64,000 bases of DNA from Okamejei kenojei (Eukaryota). A program made the position numbers and the translations under genes. Below, in pieces: positions 4,716-62,200 of this stretch. How positions within the stretch are numbered: position 1 is the stretch's first letter; the number at the start of each line of letters is the position of its first letter. Under the pieces are notes generated by a model. The model made no database searches. It had not been told where the DNA came from and was given only the letters and a program-made list of their open reading frames with translations. The DNA is taken from contig CM069148.1 of NCBI GenBank assembly GCA_035221665.1, forward strand, positions 28,768,001 to 28,832,000, read 5' to 3'.

Positions 4716-4938
4716 CAGACACAAAATGCTGGAATAATTCAGTGGGTCAGGCAGCATCTCAAGAAAAAGATTAGGTGACGTTTTGGGTTGAAACCCTTCT
4801 TAAAACGAAATAAGTGTTCCGTTCCGAAACTTCACCGATTCTTTTTTCTCCAGGGATGCTGCCTGACCTGCTGAGTTACACCAGTAGTTTGTGTCTATCT
4901 TTCATATAAAACAGTATCTGTAGTTTCTTCCTACACAC
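4716..4938. mobile_element. Penelope-like fold-back element inserted in a CR1 tail (4588-4958)
   Basis: Inverted arms AGACACAAAATGCTGG...GGCAGCATCTC / GATGCTGCCTGACC...TTTGTGTCT. Confidence 0.75.
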
Positions 4939-5343: not shown

Positions 5344-6128
5344 TTGATACCACCGGGTGGCGCTTCGATGGTAGCTTCGCCTACAGTCTGTCTGTCCTTT
5401 TCATCTTTTTTCGTTATTTTTATGGTTTTTAAAAAGTATGTGTTAATGTTCTTTGGTTTGTTTTATGTGAGGGGTGGGCAGAGGGGTTGGGGGAAACTGT
5501 TTTTCAATCTCTTACCTTGCCGGAGATGCGATTGTTTTCCGGATCGTATCTCCGGTCATTCTGCGGCCTAACATCGTGGAGCTGGAGGCCTTGCTCGGGA
5601 CTGACTTTGAGCCCCACCGCAGGGGCGTGGACTTACCATCGGAGCCGATTTCTTGCTTGGGATCGATGCTCCAACCGCGGCCTGTAGACTTTAACATCAA
5701 GGGCTCGCAGTCTCGGGTTGAGACCGACGTTAGGAAGCTCCAAAAGCCGCACGACGGTCGACGAGCCCCAACCCGGGGTAGATCGCCTGGCGCGGGGGAG
5801 CTGAGATTCCCCCGCGATGCAGGAACTTGATCGCCCCAACAAGGGAGGCCCGCCGCCGGCTACGGGAGTGAGATCGTCCTGTGAACGGAAGGTTAGAGGC
5901 CCCCGACCACTGGAGGACAAAGAAAGGCGAGATTTAACGTTTCTCGCCTTCCATCATAGTGAGGAATGTGGAGGAGTCACTGTGGTGAATGTTTATGTTA
6001 AAAAGTATTTTGTGTGTTCTGTTGTTTTTTATTGGTAAGACTGTATGGCAAATCAAATTCCTTGTATGTTGCAAAACATACTTGGCTAATAAAGTATGAT
6101 TATGGTTATTAATATGATTATGATTATG
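5344..6128 (+). mobile_element. CpG-rich non-autonomous retroelement with Rex1/Babar-like 3' tail, nested in a minus-strand CR1 3' fragment (~5271-6320)
   Basis: Ends CAAATTCCTTGTATGTTGCAAAACATACTTGGCTAATAAAG(TATGAT)n; the same tail recurs at 33826-33897. CR1 sequence resumes on both sides. Confidence 0.65.
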
Positions 6129-6672
6129 AAGATATTAATCCCATCTGCCTGCAAGTGATCCATGTTTCTCCATCCCCTGCATATACATGTAACTGTATAA
6201 AAAGCTTTCAAATGCCACTATAATATCTGCCTGCAGTGCACCCACCACTTCCTCACATTTCCTTGAAACTTTACCATTCTCACCTTAAACCTATATCTTC
6301 TAGTCCTTAACATTTCTACCCTTTGTTCATTATTTTTCAATTATTTTCAAGATGTATCCTTTAACTATCAATCCTTTTTTCATAACAAACAATATTTCCT
6401 TACGGTACAAAAACTTTCAACTGATTTAACATGAACTATCTCATCCCCCGTAAATCTATGGTGCACACACGTCAACAATCTCCCAACAGCCTTTATCAAA
6501 TGTGATGCTCCAAATAGCAAAGGCTGGCACAAAATGTGCTGTCATTTTCCAGAGGTGGGAATGAAAATTTGGATTGCACTGTTGCTGCAGTAAGGAACAT
6601 TTTTCCAGGAGAAATGGAAAGTTAAGTTTAGTGGGAAGAATTGGGATAGAATGTACTCTTGGTAAGATGAAG

Positions 6673-6781
6673 GCCCAGGAACGGCAGTCTGAAGAAGGGT
6701 CTCGACCCGAAACGTCACCTTTTTCTTCGCTCCTTAGATGCTGCCTCACCCGCTGAGTTTCTCCAGCATTTTTATCTACCC
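6673..6781 (+). mobile_element. Short Penelope-derived insertion with perfect 13-bp TSD
   Basis: TGGTAAGATGAAG at 6660-6672 and 6782-6794; the body matches the pLTR at 62105-62200. Confidence 0.85.
6686..6719 (+). ncRNA. Minimal type-I hammerhead ribozyme motif (Penelope-type)
   Basis: CUGAAGA (6689-6695), extra A, stem II GGGU-CUCG-ACCC, GAAAC (6709-6713), GUC (6714-6716). Stem III is the palindrome ACGU; stem I has only ~2 bp. Confidence 0.6.
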
Positions 6782-8578
6782 TGGTAAGATGAAGATCTCT
6801 TCATGACATGAGTTGTAACAATTGACTTAAAATCATTTAAAGCTCCCATATGCTCCATATTACTAAACCACTTGCATAAACTGCTCCAAATCTGCTCTCT
6901 ACATCAGCCACGGTTTCTTGTATTGTTCCTCATATATTTGTTTCCAAAATTGTGCCTGTTATCAAACTTTGATATCGATCCTCTTGCATTTATCTCCAAG
7001 CCATTCATAAAAAAATTAATCAGTCAAGTTTCTTTGAATTCATCTTGCCACCTTGTCAAAAAACTTCCATTCTTGCAAATGCTTTCTAAGACCTATCCAT
7101 TCCCATACATTTCTTGCCAAGTTTTCATGATCTAATGTCTCATTCACATGAGACATTCAACTGCGGACAACTAGCTTTGCACTTTCTCTGCATCATGATC
7201 TTTTCAAATAGGGCAATTAAATTGCTCGAGTCTACTTGATTGGTCTACTTTGATTAGCCTAAATCATACTGTGTTATTATTTATGCCGTTAGCTTTAGAT
7301 CTGATCACACCAGCATTTGAGTCAGGAGGTGTTAGTCTAGAGAGGCAAGAGAGTCAAGGGTGTTTTATTGTCATATGTCTTGAAACAGAACTATGAAACT
7401 CTTACTTGTAGCAGCACAACAGGTTTGTAAACACAGTAGTCCATCAATAATATAATAAACAAACAAAATGTTTTAATAAATTTAACAAAAAATTCAGTTT
7501 ATCATCCCCCTGTTTCTGGAGTAGACACAAAATATATAATTCATGAAGAAAGGTTTCGACCCAAAACAACACCTATTCCTTTTTTCGAGAGATGCTGCCT
7601 GACCCACTGAGTTACTCCAGCATTTTGTGTTTATCTTCGGTGTAAACCAGCATCTGCCTTCCGACACATTTTGTCTCTTTCTGAAGTACTTCATTTATAG
7701 AACATAGAACAGTACAGCACAGGAACAGGCCCTGTGGCCCACAATGTCTGGTGCATTTCTATGATATGTTTATGAATATCCTTAAGGTTGGGAAGGTACT
7801 ATATAAATTGAAGGTGTTTGTGACTCCAGGTGGAACGGAAGAAGGAAAAGTTGTATTCCTCAAAATGTGCCGTGGGCAAATTCAGGAACCACTCTGTGCA
7901 TTCCAATATGCTGGTGCTGTACCTTATCACTGACAAGCACAAGGCAGATTTAAATTTCAGAGTTTGCCCTCAACTCAACTGGGACTGGCTGATCTCTGAT
8001 TTCCCTACTTACCCCCTTCTTCCTTCTATAGGAAACACAAAGCAACATTCAATTCTTTACCAAAATTATCCTTCCATGAATTTTTGGAAAATTACAAACT
8101 TGCACTGTTACTGCCCCACCTCCTGCCTTGTGTTATGTGATTTAAGTGATTTGTTAACCTCTCCATGCTTTGTTTTGGAATTATTTCTAATAGTTGTTTT
8201 ATCTTGAACAGTTATCTTTACCGTCGCTCTTCCATAACTTCTTCAGATGTTTTGTCAAACCATAAAAAGCTCCAGTACAGATTCAGGCCTTTAAGCCCAT
8301 CAGATCAGCATTGACTATTAATCACCTCGAGTCTCATTTTCTAAAATCTCATTTTCACTTTAATCTCTAAAGAAATGGGAATAAAATAAGAATTCCACTC
8401 ATTCCACTCTCAAGAATAAAATGACTTTCTCTGTTTCTAAGTTATCCTACCTACCATTAGAGTTACACAGCACTGAAAGAGGCCTTTCGGGCCACTGTGT
8501 CCCTTCCAACCATCAAGTGCCCATTATACTAATTCCATTCACCAAGAGCCTTATGCCTCTCCTAAGGTGCAGCAAATG

Positions 8579-9899: not shown

Positions 9900-10031
9900 T
9901 GATCTTGACAAAGACTTTTGGAATAACAATGACAGCACAGTACAAAAGAAATGGAGTTCCTACCCTCCAAAGGAGTTCATTCTAAACATTTCGCCTTATG
10001 CACCTTATGGTGACCCTCGTCTTTCACTCAA
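9900..10031 (+). CDS. SYT7: Synaptotagmin-7 alternative linker exon (44 aa, 'beta' insert)
   Basis: Polypyrimidine tract + TAG acceptor at 9897-9899; GTGAGT donor at 10032. Length 132 nt, phase 2/2. Translates (N)DLDKDFWNNNDSTVQKKWSSYPPKEFILNISPYAPYGDPRLSL, nearly identical to the recalled mammalian Syt7 beta insert. Confidence 0.95.
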
Positions 10032-18603: not shown

Positions 18604-18788
18604 TGTAGGAAGGAACTTCAGATGCTGGTTTACACCGAAGATAGACACAAAAAGCTGGAGTAACTCAGCGGGTCAGACAGCATCTCTGGAGAGAAGGAAT
18701 GGGTGACATTTCCGAAACATCACCGATTCCGTTTCTCCAGAGATGCTGTCTGACCCGCTGAGTTACACCAACTTTTTGTGTCTATCTG
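18604..18788. mobile_element. Penelope-derived fold-back element with 13-bp TSD
   Basis: AGGAATTAGAATA at 18591-18603 and 18789-18801; ~73-bp inverted arms with almost no loop. Confidence 0.85.
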
Positions 18789-27896: not shown

Positions 27897-28690
27897 TAGA
27901 AAACATAGAAAAATAGGTGCAGGTGTAGGCCATTCGGCCCTTCGAGCCAGCACCACCATTCAATATGATCATGGCTGATCATCTAAAATCAGTACCCCGT
28001 TCCTGCTTTTTCCCCATATCCATTAATTTCTTCAGCCCAAAGAGCTAAATCTAATTCTCTCTTGAAAACATCCAGTGAATTGACCTCCACTGCCCTCAGT
28101 GGCAGAGAATTCCACAGATTCACAACTCTCTGGGTGAAGAAGTTTTTCCTCATCGCAGTTCTAAATGGCCTACCCCTTATTCTTAAACTGTGACCCCTGT
28201 TTCAGGACTCTCCCAATATCGAAACAATTTTTCCTGCATCTAGCCTGTCCAATCCTTTAAGAATTGTATATCTTTCTATAAGATCCCCTCTCATCATTCT
28301 AAATTCCAGTAAATACAAGCCCAGTCGACCCATTCTTTCATCATATGTCAGTCCCGTCATCCCGGGAATTAACCTGGTAAACTTACGCTGCACTCCCTCA
28401 ATAGCAATAATGTCCATCCTCAAATTAGGACACCAAAATTGTACACAATACTCCAGGTGCAGTCTCACCAGGGCCCTGTACAACTGCAGTAGGACCTCCT
28501 TGCTCCTAAATGCAAATCCTCTCGCAATGCCATTAGCTTTATTCATTACCTGCTTTACCTGCATGCTTACTTTCAGTGACTCATATACAAGCACACCCAG
28601 GTCTCTTTGCACCTCCCCTTTTCCTAATCTGACAACATTCAGATAATAATCTGCCTATCTGTTCTTGCCACCAAAGTAGATAACCTCATG
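27897..28690 (-). mobile_element. CR1/HER1 LINE, 5'-truncated
   Basis: ORF 28202-28612 (QRDLGVLV...LYRALVRLHLEYCVQFW...RGDLIE). Confidence 0.92.
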
Positions 28691-43535: not shown

Positions 43536-45805
43536 TGGCCAAACTTGCCCACACCGGCCAACAATGTCCCAGCTACCCTAATCCCACTTGCCTGCGCTTG
43601 GTCCATAACCCCCAAACCTATCCTATCCATGTACCTGTCCAACTCTTTCTTAAATGATGGGATAGTCCCAGCCTCAACTACCTCCTCTGGCAGCTTGTTC
43701 CATTCACTAACCACCCTCTGTGTGGAAAAAGTTACCCCTCGGATTCCTATTAAATCTTTTCCCCTTCACCTTGAACCTATGTCCTCTGGTTCTCGATTCC
43801 CCTACTCTGGTTAAAAGACTCTGTGCATCTACCCGATCTATTTCTCACATGATTTTATATACCTCTATAAGATCTCCCTTCATCCTCCTGCGCTCCATGG
43901 AATAAAGACCCAGCCTACTCAACCTCTCCCCATAGCTCTAGTCCTGGCATCCTCGTAAATGTTTTCTGAACCCTTTCAAGCTTGACAATATCTTTCCTAT
44001 AACATGGTGCCCAGAACTGAACACAATGCTCTAAATGCAGTCTCAACAACATCTTATACAACTACAACATGACCTCCCAACTTCTATACTCAATACTCTG
44101 ACTGATGAAGGCCAAAGTGCCAAAAGCCTTTTTGATCATTTTATCTACCTGCGACTCGACCTTCAAGGAGCCATGCACTTGTACTCCTAGATCCCTCTGC
44201 TCTACAACACTACCCAGGGGCCTACCATTTACTGTGTAGGTCCTGCCCTTGTTCGACGTCCCAAAATGCAACACCTCCCACTTCTCTGTATGAAATTCCT
44301 CCGCCCACCTGGCCAATCGTTCCGGATCCTGCTGCAATCGTTCACAACCATCTTCACTATCTGCAAAACCACTAACTTTTGTATCATCAGTAAACCTGCT
44401 AATCTTGCCCTGTATGTTCTCATCCAAATCATTGATGTAGATGACAAACAGTAATGAGCCAGCACCGAACCCTGAGGCACACCACTAGTCGCAGTCCTCC
44501 ATTCTGAGAAGCAACCTTCCACCATCACCCTCTGCTTCCTTCCATGGAGCCAATTTGCTATCCATTCAGCTACCTCTCCTTGGATCCCATGAGATCTAAC
44601 CTTCCAGAGCAGCCTATCATGCGGCCCCTTGTCGAACGCCGTACTGAAGTCCATGTACACAAGATCTACAGATCTGCCTTCATCAATCTTTTTGCTCATG
44701 TCTTCAAAAAAATCAATCAGATTTGTGACACACGACCTCCTACGTACAAGACCATAAGATGTTGGTAAATACAGAGAGGAATTACTCATTGAGGACCTTG
44801 TCCATCTCCTGTGGCTCCACAGAGAGGTGACCGCTTTTATTCCTGAGAGGTCCCATCTCTCTCTCTAGTTACCCTTTTCCCCCTTATGTATTTATAAAAT
44901 CTTTTGGGATTGTCTTTTATGCTACCCACCAGAGCTATCTCCTGGCTCCTTTTTGCCCTTCTGATCTTTTTTAGTTTGCTCCTTAGTTCCCAAAACTCCT
45001 CTGGGGATGCACTTGATTCCAGCTGCCTATACCTGTCCCATGCATCCTTCTTGTTTTTGACTAACATCTCAAATTCCCTCGTCAGCCAAGATTCCTTACA
45101 TTTGCCTGCTTTGCCTTTCACTCTAACGGGGACGTACACATCCTGATCTCTCTTCAGTACACTTTTAAAAACATCCCACTTGGCCGATTTTCCTTTTCCC
45201 TCAGATAACCTGCTCCAGTCAACTTGAGCAAGACCTTTTCTCATACCCTCAAAGTTTGCTTTAACCCGGTTGAGCATTTTAACACGCGGACCCTCTCCGT
45301 CCCGATCCATAACTATCTTAAACCTAATCAAACTGTGGTCACTCGTCCCAAAAGGCTCCCCCACACACACTTCATTAATTTGCCCTTCCCAATTTCCCAA
45401 TACTAGATCCAGCGTTGCCCTCTCACGTGTGGGGGCCTCCACATACTGTTTAAGAAAACTCTCCTGAATACTTTTGAGGAATTGCACCCCATCTAAACCC
45501 TTCACGCTATGGTTTTCCCGGTCTATATTGGGAAAGTTGAAATCCCCTACTACAACAACCTTATTTGACCTGTAGCTGTCTGCAATCTCCCGGCACATTT
45601 TTTCTTCTAATTCTTGTTGACTATTTGGGGGTCTGTAGTACACCCCCAACAAGGTGATCATCCCTTTCTTGTTCCTCAGCTCCACCCATATAGCGTAACT
45701 AGACGAACCATCCGTAATGCCACCTCTGAACACAGCCGTGACATCCTCCTTAACCATCAATGCAACCACCTTTCTTCTTTTTTCCTCACCCCTGTCTCTC
45801 CTAAA
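43535..45805 (-). mobile_element. CR1/HER1 LINE with AP endonuclease and internally deleted RT (decayed)
   Basis: ORF 44837-45895 has APE motifs (GVYYRPP, VVGDFNFP, TRERATLDLVL, SDH). ORFs 44229-44789 and 44062-44427 have RT motifs (YMDFSTAFDK, SGVPQGSVL, FTDDTK) broken by frameshifts. Confidence 0.95.
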
Positions 45806-45809
45806 GCTC

Positions 45810-48800
45810 CTTATCCATGTTCTCCAGAGATGCTGCCTGACCCACTGAGTTACTCCAGTACTTTGTGTTCTTTTGATGAAGAGAGGAACCATCATTTGAA
45901 GGTTTAACTAGCCATTTCTTCACAGACCAGTGTTGAGTGTCTCATGTGGTGTGTTTCTATGACTTCATTATGAAATGTTGCTTCTGGCAAACTTACAAAT
46001 AATAAAAGCAGTTTGGACTATGGTGGACTATGTATGTGAGTGTTCAACTCAAGGACTGCACTTCCTGAACATTTAGTTTTGGAATGCTTTCGAAAGTTTG
46101 AGGTTGTAAAAATGCACAGTACAAATATTCATTTTTCTTCTCACTAATTTTGCAAAACTAAGAAGAAAACTTGAGAGAGACCCAATACCAAGTTTTCATT
46201 GTGACTACAAGAGTAACATAAAATATATTAGAGCAGCTTTGCCCTGTGCTGTAAGTAGGGTCTACTATTCTGTGTATGTACAATAAATCCACATATCCTT
46301 TATGTAGGACATGCTGGTTACTTCCCTGAAACATCTCAATTCCTTGCGCTGCTTTGGAATTTAAGACACCTCTAAGAAGGAGAATCACGTGTTATATTGT
46401 CGTGTTTAAAGACAATGGAAGAATGAATTTCTTAATGAGCCCGTACCAGCAATATACACGAATGAATATAACAATCCTAAACATTAAATAAACTACTTTA
46501 CATAATACTAGTACAAATAAAATGTTTATACGCTATATAACTATGACTGAATTTCTTTAGTCATTATCCATCTTGAAATGATAACAATGGATTTTGGAGT
46601 TCTCTCAACAATTTGAAAGTATAGCTTTAAGAGCCTTTATCAAAACCAAAGAATGCAAAGCAGCAAATACACGCAAATAAAATGTAATTGCTCAGATTTT
46701 GTGGATCAGACATTGGGGTTCCTGAGCCAGAGAGTAAATATTCCTGCCTGTTGTCATAAATTTTCATAGATGTCAGTGAGAGTACAATTTGCAGTATGGT
46801 AGAGTTGCACTTCACAGATATACAGTCCCACTGCAGATGATTGGACTGTTTCTTCCTTTATGGCAGACTGCCACAAAATCCATGAATCTTGGTGCATGGA
46901 ATTTACAAAATAGCTAGTACATAGAATGGAGTACGTGTCCTTAAACATTTTATGGTTTATGGCATCTTAACATCTTGTTTTATTGCCTTGTAATATTTTT
47001 TACCGTTTATATATTCCTTCATACTGCTTGAATTGTGTCCCAAGTATTTGAGCAACATATATATATTGTTTTGTATATGTTTCATATCAGAATTTTAATT
47101 AATATATTATGTAAGAATTTTTGCTTCTGGTTATCCAGAATACAATGCAAGAGTAATTGTGTGTGCCTTTGTTAGAACCATATACACTGATGATACAGAC
47201 ATTTAGTGACTCTTCGGAGGTACTGTTTCTTTCTGTGTCGACTATACAGTTGTAAATGCGGCCCGTTCTTCATTTACACAGCAAATTGATTGTCAAATAT
47301 TTATGGAGCATAGGCAGGAGAGCAATGATTTAATTCCAATATAATTTGGGCTGCTCCGATATAAGAATATTGACTATAAGCTGAGACTGATTTTACTGCT
47401 GATTCTATCTACACTTAGAGATTAACAATAAATTATGTTATTCCTCTCTCATTGCGAGGCAACACTGCACGGTGGCTTTATAATGAAGCTTAAATGAAAC
47501 AATCTGCATATACTACATGGAACGTGCTTCTGACCATCCTCACTGTTTGCTCCCAGCAGATTTATGTGATAATTTAAAAATAAGTTAAGGGACAAAGTAT
47601 CCTCTGATTAAATATCTCTGCTAATTATATAGCTTGCAAGCATTTATTTATTATTGAATGATTTCTTTCTTATAGGCTGAGTAATGCTATTAGAATTTTA
47701 AATCCTTTGAATAGCTAAAAAAATGCAGAGGTAATGTGGTGATCTGGCTCCATCCTGTATCTAAATGCAACATTTCCTCCAGGTGTCCTAGGTCAAGGAT
47801 TATGGTATCTGTTCATCCCTCAAGCTGTCTGTAAACCTATATGTTTAATTGTTTTTCAAATCCTGCAAGCAAAATCTTTCTCTCAATCCTGCCTTTTTCC
47901 TTTATTTGTAGCTTCCTCTTCCAGCTGTCCATGTTAATTGTGGTTAAACGTCAGCTGTTCCAGTACTTGCTGCTCCACCTGTCTGTGACTCTTCAGTGTC
48001 TGAAACTCTGCAATTTTGTTTCTCGCTGCAGCCTGTTTCTATTTTTGTACTTTTCTTCCACCCACTCTATCTCCCCCCACACTGTTTAAAAACACTCTGC
48101 TTTGCTTACAGACTGCTTTCTCAGACCCAGAGACTTCATCAACTTAACAGAAGCTGTACGAACCAACATTAAATCCTGTTTACAGCACTAGCCGTGAATA
48201 GTTGCTAATGATTTGATGCTAACGCCTCTTTTCAGTTGCTCTTTGGCTTGACTCTCTTGCCTTCTTTTTCCACTCTTCACTGTGTCTCATCATCATCCTC
48301 TCAATCATCAAACATTGATGAATCCTAATACTGACTAACCTCTGCCTGCCTCCTGTGTTCCCTTCTCTTGTGGCATAACAGAAGCCTGTATGTGTACCTG
48401 TGTGTGTGTGTGTGCGTGTGTGTGCGTACCTATGTGAGTCTTTGTCTGTGTTAATGCCAGAACTTGAGAGTTATTATGCTGACAAAGGATGTCCTCAATC
48501 CTCTGATGGCACGTAGCATGATAGCCACATAAAGGTTCCAAGTAGAACTGCTTCTGACGTATTGGCTGCTTTCTCTCAGAAGGGAATCTGCTAAGAATTT
48601 AACCAAAGTAAGTCGAGAACATTTAAAGGTCTGAAAGCTACATTTCATTGAGCAATTATGCCATAAATTATCTATTTAATTCAAGAAATGTTCAAAAAAT
48701 ATTAAATATAATTTCAAAAAATCCGTCAATCGATTTGTAACTTTGCCGGAAGCAAAATTTCATAATGAGGTCACAGACACACACCAAATGACAAACCCAA

Positions 48801-53987: not shown

Positions 53988-54231
53988 TGTGTAGGAAGGG
54001 ACTGCAGATGCTGGTTTATACCAAAGATAGACATAAAATGATGGAGTAACTCAGCAGGACAGGTAGCATCTATGGGGAACATGGATAGGTGACGCTGAGT
54101 CTGAAGAAGGGTTCCGACCCGAAACGTTACCCATTCCTACGCTCCAGAGATGCTGCCTGTCCTGCTGAGTTACTCCAGCACTTTGTGTCTATCTTCGGTG
54201 TAAACCAGCATCTGCATTTCCTTCCTACACA
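53988..54231. mobile_element. Penelope-derived fold-back element with a hammerhead core in its loop
   Basis: ~105-bp inverted arms TGTGTAGGAAGG...GGTGACG / CGTTACCC...CCTTCCTACACA enclose CTGAAGAAGGGTTCCGACCCGAAA (54101-54124). Confidence 0.85.
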
Positions 54232-61329: not shown

Positions 61330-61567
61330 CACAAGTTCGTCACCTTCCACGCTACCAGCCGTCACATACAACAAATAATCCTCCGACATTTTTGCCAACT
61401 CCAACGGGATCCCACCACTGGCCACATCTTCCCATCTCCTCCCGTCTGCTTTCCGCAGAGACCGCTCCCTCTGTAACTCCCTGGTCAATTTGTCCCTTCC
61501 CACCCAAACCACCCCCTCTCCTGGCACTTTCCCTTGCAACCGCAGGAAATACTACACTTGTCATTTT

Positions 61568-61649
<82 letters not shown>

Positions 61650-62200
61650 TTGACTCCATTCAAGGACCCAAGCAGTCTTTCCAGGTTCAGCAGAGGTTCA
61701 CCTGCACCTCCTCCAACCTCATCTATTGCATCCGCTGCTCTAGGTGTCAGCTGCTCTACATCTGTGAGACCAAGCGGAGGCTTGGCGATCGCTTCGCCCC
61801 ACACCTGTGCTCGGTTCGCATTAACCTACCTGATCTCCCGGTAGCTCAGCACTTCAACTCCCCCTCCCATTCCGAATCCGACCTTTCCGTCCTGGGCCTC
61901 CTCCATGGCCAGAGTGAGTCCCACCGTAAATTGGAGGAGCAGCATCTCATATTTTGCTTGGGCAGTTTACACCCCAGCGGTATGAACATTGACTTCTCTA
62001 ATTTCAGGTAGTCCCTGCTTTCTCCTCCCCTTCTCAGCTCTCCCTCAGCCCATTGTCTCCGCCTCTTCTTTTCTTCTTCCCGTGCCCCTCCCCCCACCCT
62101 CACATCAGTCTGAAGAAGGGCCTCGACCCAAAACGTTGCCTATTTCCTTCGCTCCATAGCTGCCTCACCTGCCGAGTTCCTCCAGCATTTTGTCTCACCT
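61330..62200 (+). mobile_element. Penelope-like retroelement, 5'-truncated: Cys-rich linker + GIY-YIG endonuclease + pLTR
   Basis: ORF 61490-62011 (FTCTSSNLIYCIRCSRCQLLYICETKRRLGDRF..H...PVAQHFN...RKLEEQHLIFCLGSLHPSGMN) is a PLE GIY-YIG domain. Confidence 0.92.
61569..61649. repeat. 81-nt poly-C run
   Basis: Directly visible; its length may be a sequencing or assembly artefact. Confidence 0.9.

Follow-up and report, generated by a model that had tools for sequence, protein, structure and literature searches.

A probably inactive minimal hammerhead in a Penelope-like element insert of a SYT7 intron in the skate Okamejei kenojei

Introduction

Minimal hammerhead ribozymes (min-HHRs) have been described in the pLTRs of metazoan Penelope-like elements (PLEs), and in fishes they are reported from Xena, Poseidon and Neptune PLEs (PMC4209133). 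They combine the hammerhead core with an extra base between positions 9 and 10.1, a G10.1-C11.1 pair and palindromic positions 15.2-16.2. They have no helix III loop, and most copies are solo and truncated. Single min-HHRs showed no cleavage and dimers a low level of it. The available portion of the main text of PMC4209133 names no shark or skate, and its supplements may list them; our literature search returned no title on hammerheads in cartilaginous-fish PLEs.

Two groups of elements are of particular use for comparison. Neptune-clade EN+ PLEs encode a reverse transcriptase (RT) followed by a GIY-YIG endonuclease with CCHH, together with an extra Zn-finger-like motif in the linker, DKG and CxC, and they occur as partial tandems with pLTRs, with 5′ truncation, inverted 5′ copies, a short optional tail and variable target-site duplications (TSDs) (bioRxiv 2021.04.23.441226). 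In the Anolis Poseidon element PAc, the hammerhead lies at the pLTR end, fixed internal 3′ ends with an optional tail follow just downstream, and the ORF begins at stem II (PMC11167929). The anole PLE hammerhead cleaved only with the PLE protein and was dispensable for insertion, and no RNA-seq reads ended at its cleavage site. The minimal RNA of the anole protein requires the first 172 nt of the ORF.

Hammerheads are also known outside intact PLEs. Those in the introns of the amniote RECK, CTCL and DTNB genes have type I topology and are canonical, full type I motifs conserved across lineages (PMC6155905). Non-LTR retrozymes are PLE-derived tandem repeats with at least two complete type I hammerheads and are present in the sole chondrichthyan sampled (bioRxiv 2026.07.22.740005).

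Here we describe an insert at 6660-6794 of a 64,000-nt stretch of Okamejei kenojei DNA (assembly GCA_035221665.1, contig CM069148.1, positions 28,768,001 to 28,832,000, forward strand), called the window below. All coordinates refer to the window unless a locus is named.

Results

Structure of the insert

On the + strand the insert is bounded by a left TSD at 6660-6672 and a right TSD at 6782-6794, direct repeats identical at 13/13 positions and separated by 109 bp. Within them lies the 5′-truncated 3′ end of a PLE pLTR (6685-6781, + strand), preceded by a 12-nt 5′ extra (6673-6684, - strand) similar to a stretch of the element's endonuclease-coding region in inverted orientation.

The hammerhead, also on the + strand, begins with the 5′ strand of stem I (6687-6688), which forms only 2 bp with 6717-6718. 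The core and one extra A before stem II occupy 6689-6696 (C3-A9 at 6689-6695, extra A at 6696). Stem II and loop 2 follow at 6697-6708, with 4 bp between strands 6697-6700 and 6705-6708 and a 4-nt loop, and 6709-6716 holds G12-A15.1 (6709-6712), the loopless palindrome ACGU (6712-6715) and C17 (6716). The formal cleavage site is 6716|6717. A preliminary description of this DNA had reported the TSDs, a minimal type I hammerhead with an extra base between A9 and G10.1, its palindrome and a site after C6716, and a stem I of about 2 bp; all of this was borne out.

The core of the PLE min-HHRs, CUGANGA ... GAAA-N-N-U-H, is matched at 6689-6716, with A6696 between positions 9 and 10.1, G6697-C6708 as the G10.1-C11.1 pair and C6713/G6714 as the palindromic 15.2-16.2. 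The core is fully intact and all three CpGs are kept. In these features, as in the loopless helix III, the pLTR location and the solo, truncated state, the insert resembles the motifs of PMC4209133. Its 2-bp stem I is shorter than the 4-5 bp of the S. mansoni min-HHRs and equal to the 2 bp of D. virilis, and its 4-bp stem II compares with 7-8 bp in S. mansoni (PMC4209133).

A strict hammerhead descriptor recognized 2 motifs in the 64-kb window and none in 60 windows simulated with matching composition. The hammerhead motif in the window exceeds chance. An Rfam scan of 5500-8000 with E up to 10 returned no hammerhead family and two unrelated matches under gathering scores.

Judged from its sequence, the insert is by motif and location a PLE minimal hammerhead. 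It shares the intronic position and type I topology with the amniote motifs but, unlike them, it is a high-copy stub without a full stem I or loop-loop contacts and without an Rfam hit. It shares PLE derivation and a type I hammerhead with the retrozymes, whereas the insert is a single TSD-flanked copy without tandem units each bearing a complete hammerhead. It is thus neither a canonical or domesticated intronic hammerhead nor a tandem retrozyme.

Element family

The segment 6685-6781 matches 23 other places within the window, and copies in the 2.76-Gb genome share 93-97% identity with it. The exact 28-nt core has 48,215 genome matches (reversed control, 0), and 13 of the 29 nearest copies likewise carry the identical core. 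This is far above the roughly 4,000 and 9,000 motifs reported, by a different counting method, for coelacanth and Xenopus, respectively (PMC4209133). That the copy is special is not supported; it is one of 48,215 with an identical core. With blastn we obtained 136 hits in 400 kb (40 spread stretches) and 104 in the 264 kb around SYT7, which extrapolates to about 0.9 million element hits genome-wide.

A longer copy of the same element at 61379-62191 (+ strand) contains the endonuclease-coding end and then the same pLTR motif at 62106, about 100 nt after the stop of its endonuclease-like frame. Among 36 ends of GIY-YIG ORFs, some of them at overlapping loci, the motif lies 96-123 nt past the stop in 24 and further off in 3, while 9 have no exact match. 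In L156 (2900-8370, - strand), a near full-length partial tandem, two 1473-bp repeats of 99.86% identity surround the ORF, and each ends in the hammerhead motif. The position of the motif at ORF ends and at both L156 repeat ends identifies the SYT7-intron insert as a 5′-truncated pLTR end, in agreement with the earlier assignment to a Penelope pLTR. L156 belongs to a sister subfamily, 91% identical to the SYT7-intron copy, and its near-identical pLTRs suggest recent activity of that subfamily.

The element encodes RT and then the GIY-YIG endonuclease within one ORF. In 3 of the 5 frames scanned, Pfam recognized RVT_1 (E 9e-7 to 7e-6) and GIY-YIG (E 1e-3 to 1e-2), with all scores just under the curated cut-offs; a fourth frame gave a weaker RT match and the fifth, an N-terminal piece, no domain. 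The longer frames also show DKG, CxC, a Cys-rich linker and CCHH, and the RT-EN linker of L141 and L142 has an extra Zn-finger-like Cys-rich motif. Partial tandems with pLTRs, 5′ truncation, inverted 5′ copies, a tail and TSDs were found as well. These features, shared with the Neptune-clade EN+ PLEs (bioRxiv 2021.04.23.441226), point to a Neptune-type PLE, the clade being placed by the linker motif alone. By that motif PAc, a Poseidon element, belongs to a different clade; the two are alike in a hammerhead at the pLTR end, fixed internal 3′ ends just downstream and an optional tail, but the long frame of L156 begins further downstream than the PAc ORF (PMC11167929).

Four frames of the window, among them the endonuclease piece, had no Pfam match, and an NCBIfam search gave one weak hit (E 0.11). 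The sole match of a PDB search with the PLE ORF was a designed repeat protein, which we discarded.

Origin and age of the insert

Copies of the family either stop at the position of 6780/6781, their common 3′ end, or continue into a short tail, which resembles the internal reverse-transcription starts demonstrated for the anole element (PMC11167929). With at most 2 edits, the 12-nt extra at 6673-6684 matches the endonuclease-coding region antisense, about 210 nt upstream of the pLTR end and at the corresponding position in 14/14 endonuclease-bearing loci checked (rough chance estimate 0.01-0.05); the match overlaps the end of the duplication by two bases. It is likely a small inversion produced during insertion. 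If this reading is right, the template RNA extended upstream of the hammerhead.

The insertion may be pictured as follows. The element's protein would nick the target, and reverse transcription would start at the usual internal start (3′ end 6780/6781) and come to a halt some 97 nt further on, where the hammerhead has its 5′ edge. The 12 inverted bases would then come from another brief priming event, and repair would duplicate 14 bp of the target.

Short TSD-bounded copies of the family tend to begin at the 5′ edge of the hammerhead (the equivalent of 6680-6698). The left TSD ended between element positions -11 and 32 in 14 copies, and 11 of these copies start at -4 to 13. The TSD search succeeded for 59 of 216 copies, and many long-range hits, likely due to chance, were left out. 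A C-rich tract precedes the preferred start site, a short palindrome built around a single T that also forms the centre of several inverted pairs.

In another individual and in each of organisms B, C, D, E and F, contigs from the unique flanks extend into the insert on either side; the flanks of these five organisms differ at 23/987, 26/987, 25/988, 26/955 and 37/990 positions, respectively (2.3-3.7%). The insert is therefore common to six related species at the same site, with the core in B-F obscured by paralogue pile-up. No empty-site allele was seen in the 7 flank-covering runs listed (6 organisms), contigs of this kind showing presence rather than absence. A C occupies 6659 in organisms D, E and F, implying that the left duplication, 13 bp in our sequence, was originally 14 bp and that one later change occurred in Okamejei kenojei.

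Two changes (6724 and 6734), about 2%, set the SYT7-intron copy apart from all 4 nearest copies compared. This divergence fits an insertion shortly before these six species split. The copy had been called young, and relative to the family median (80% identity) it is; it is not species-specific, and the term holds in the relative sense only.

Host gene and splicing signals

An exon about 7 kb beyond the window end has solved synaptotagmin-7 chains as its best match (E 6e-55; synaptotagmin-1, 2e-35). SYT7 lies on the + strand, so the insert is sense to its intron, as had been proposed. The host intron runs from an exon some 5.6 kb ahead of the window to the next SYT7 exon at 9900-10031 (+ strand), and the two exons join in frame. 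Middle SYT7 exons were located with short SYT7 peptide motifs, and their naming is in part provisional. A motif search of 140 kb upstream did not find SYT7 exon 2.

Inverted pairs of the same PLE lie at 4723-4890, 18649-18777 and 54035-54184; such pairs would make long hairpins in SYT7 pre-mRNA. Frames at 44229-45907 and 28194-28654 (- strand) we take to be fragments of LINE-type reverse transcriptase and endonuclease.

A 46-nt cryptic exon is predicted at 6738-6783 (+ strand), with its acceptor in the insert and its donor in the right duplication. Pyrimidines make up 16 of the 18 nucleotides before the TAG acceptor that ends at 6737, a tract lengthened by the copy's own two changes. The donor after 6783, in the duplicated target, agrees with 7/9 consensus positions, like real SYT7 exons. 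B, C and D, the organisms for which every listed difference is accounted for, show no change in this donor region. Inclusion of the exon would place a stop at 6754-6756. Comparison with the branch-point consensus suggests a candidate branch-point A at 6717, directly after the scissile bond. In the window, candidates of equal strength number 5 in sense (one of them a real exon) and 7 in antisense. Antisense pseudo-exons being as common as sense ones, the exon is at background level; a stricter filter that singles it out was chosen after its discovery.

Upstream of the core in other copies (62009-62108; L052-L087) we observed a donor-like site at the ORF stop, a pyrimidine-rich stretch of about 100 nt and CAG directly before the core. 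This layout is reminiscent of D. virilis, where an intron ends at helix I. Splicing at the CAG would not lengthen stem I. A search for spliced element copies gave 34 genome hits to the junction pattern; none of the 10 inspected was spliced, and they represent an older subfamily in which this sequence context is natural.

Folding and capacity to cleave

Stem I has 2 bp in the SYT7-intron copy and in 30 of 36 exact-core copies. In the predicted fold of the insert in its context, 6690-6700 pairs with 6717-6729 in a competing hairpin (6690-6729, + strand) that buries the catalytic core, and stem II has a probability of 0.01. The hammerhead-constrained fold lies about 7 kcal/mol above the minimum. 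The insert has no unusual stability (z-score -0.53). The same hairpin is predicted in most intact-core copies, with stem II probability below 0.1 in 32 of the 36 and G8 mostly paired in 35 of them. Such a family-wide hairpin could be an off fold, to be opened by the element's protein. Because folding models take no account of proteins or tertiary contacts, they overstate what the active fold costs.

We looked at possible partner copies in the same transcript. None of the 5 other element copies in the host intron has an intact core, and the nearest sense copies that do are 26, 29 and 47 kb off. Between the upstream exon and the last exon of SYT7 there are 20 sense and 14 antisense copies. The core bases are kept in 5 of the sense copies, and the CG palindrome only in the insert and in the copy at 54098. 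At 20 and 23 kb ahead of the window there are two further intact sense copies; with exon 2 not found upstream, they are only probably within the gene. With each of the 4 partners tried, the double-hammerhead fold was 23-26 kcal/mol above the best co-fold. Far stronger pairing (-110 to -147 kcal/mol) is predicted with antisense partner copies.

Selection across copies

Compensatory double changes in stem II were counted in 7 of 644 cells, against a shuffle mean of 5.2 (p 0.26; 240 hits); across dispersed copies there was no stem II covariation above chance. Absence of this covariation, along with absence of cleavage, had been named in the preliminary description as what would count against its proposal. 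Non-CpG core positions vary at 6.3%, the same as non-ribozyme positions (6.3%), and G12, which is in a CpG, varies at 31% compared with 28% for CpG outside the ribozyme.

G12 is the general base (PMC6155905). Genome-wide single-change counts are 5,922 for G12A, 4,555 for the tolerated C11.1U in the same CpG and 2,831 for a G>A change in the loop; the inactivating G12A is thus 1.3 times as frequent as the tolerated change at that CpG. This excess may reflect sequence context or subfamily spread or, alternatively, selection against active copies.

Lack of covariation, core decay rates like those outside and a G12A that is not rarer together indicate that dispersed copies decay without protection of catalysis. 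Drawn from a single lineage in which most copies are decaying, the sample has low power for selection on source elements. One-sided changes that preserve pairing are frequent (stem I U-A to U-G in 27/121, last stem II pair U-A to U-G in 14/167), which is a mild hint of selection in source elements. All these tests are class-level and silent on selection acting on one single copy. The intact core of the SYT7-intron copy and its retention in six species fit a recent age, and selection is compatible with them too.

Discussion

These results allow us to describe the insert as, very probably, the 5′-truncated end of a very high-copy Penelope-like retrotransposon that is fixed in a SYT7 intron in six species. 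It carries the standard pLTR hammerhead, likely inactive and likely without effect on SYT7. In SYT7 pre-mRNA the RNA of the insert would fold into the core-burying hairpin. A real cleavage role, if any, would belong to the full-length element RNA, with two pLTRs and the element's protein at hand. The caution in the preliminary description that this hammerhead may be a fossil appears justified.

The intact core leaves room for catalysis in two forms. As a conditionally active passenger, the insert would be cut after C6716 at a low rate whenever the element's protein or another sense copy refolds it, and the cut, being intronic, would hardly affect SYT7 mRNA. No core base is altered, the ACGU palindrome is preserved, 48,215 identical cores are potential partners, and protein-assisted cleavage is demonstrated for the anole PLE (PMC11167929). 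Yet stem I has 2 bp, the competing hairpin is predicted, the stub has no region matching the ORF part of the anole protein's minimal RNA, and even for the anole element no reads ended at the site (PMC11167929); we consider this passenger activity unlikely. The other form builds on the earlier proposal: the young copy would find a sense partner within one SYT7 pre-mRNA, the two would form a double hammerhead, and cleavage would follow as a regulatory event. Its sense orientation, the sense copy with core bases and CG palindrome at 54098, the two copies 20-23 kb before the window and the existence of domesticated intronic hammerheads in amniotes (PMC6155905) speak for it. The other copies in the intron all lack an intact core, however, the partners are 26-47 kb away, the dimer fold is disfavoured and antisense pairing is far stronger. 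Sense copies are not depleted in the SYT7 span examined, and the amniote motifs are full type I folds (PMC6155905), unlike the insert with no Rfam hit. Pairing of this kind has next to no probability in our assessment.

The insert might also act on SYT7 through splicing rather than catalysis, as a 46-nt poison cassette exon (6738-6783) that shifts the frame and triggers decay. The pyrimidine tract, the 7/9 donor, the stop on inclusion and the donor unchanged in B, C and D would agree with this, but an unaltered 9-nt donor is what 2.5% divergence would predict anyway, 5 sense and 7 antisense candidates put the pattern at background level, and the stricter filter was post hoc; such an exon is very unlikely. 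Lower still in probability is a combination in which the insert was recruited at SYT7. There, the candidate branch-point A at 6717 would serve the poison exon and ribozyme cleavage assisted by protein or a partner copy would switch the exon off, so that the level of a synaptic calcium sensor in these fishes would be tied to a transposon ribozyme.

The truncated, probably inactive pLTR end in the SYT7 intron is one ordinary copy of an already described motif and matters little as such. The family is maybe of modest use to PLE specialists. Its roughly 48,000 intact cores, which decay without a sign of selection and mostly share a 2-bp stem I and a predicted core-burying hairpin, fit ribozymes that are off until the element's protein refolds them. 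If this copy were to cleave or be spliced in, it would be a case of a transposon ribozyme recruited to the control of a neuronal gene, a step for which ancient intronic hammerheads of amniotes have so far given only inferential evidence.
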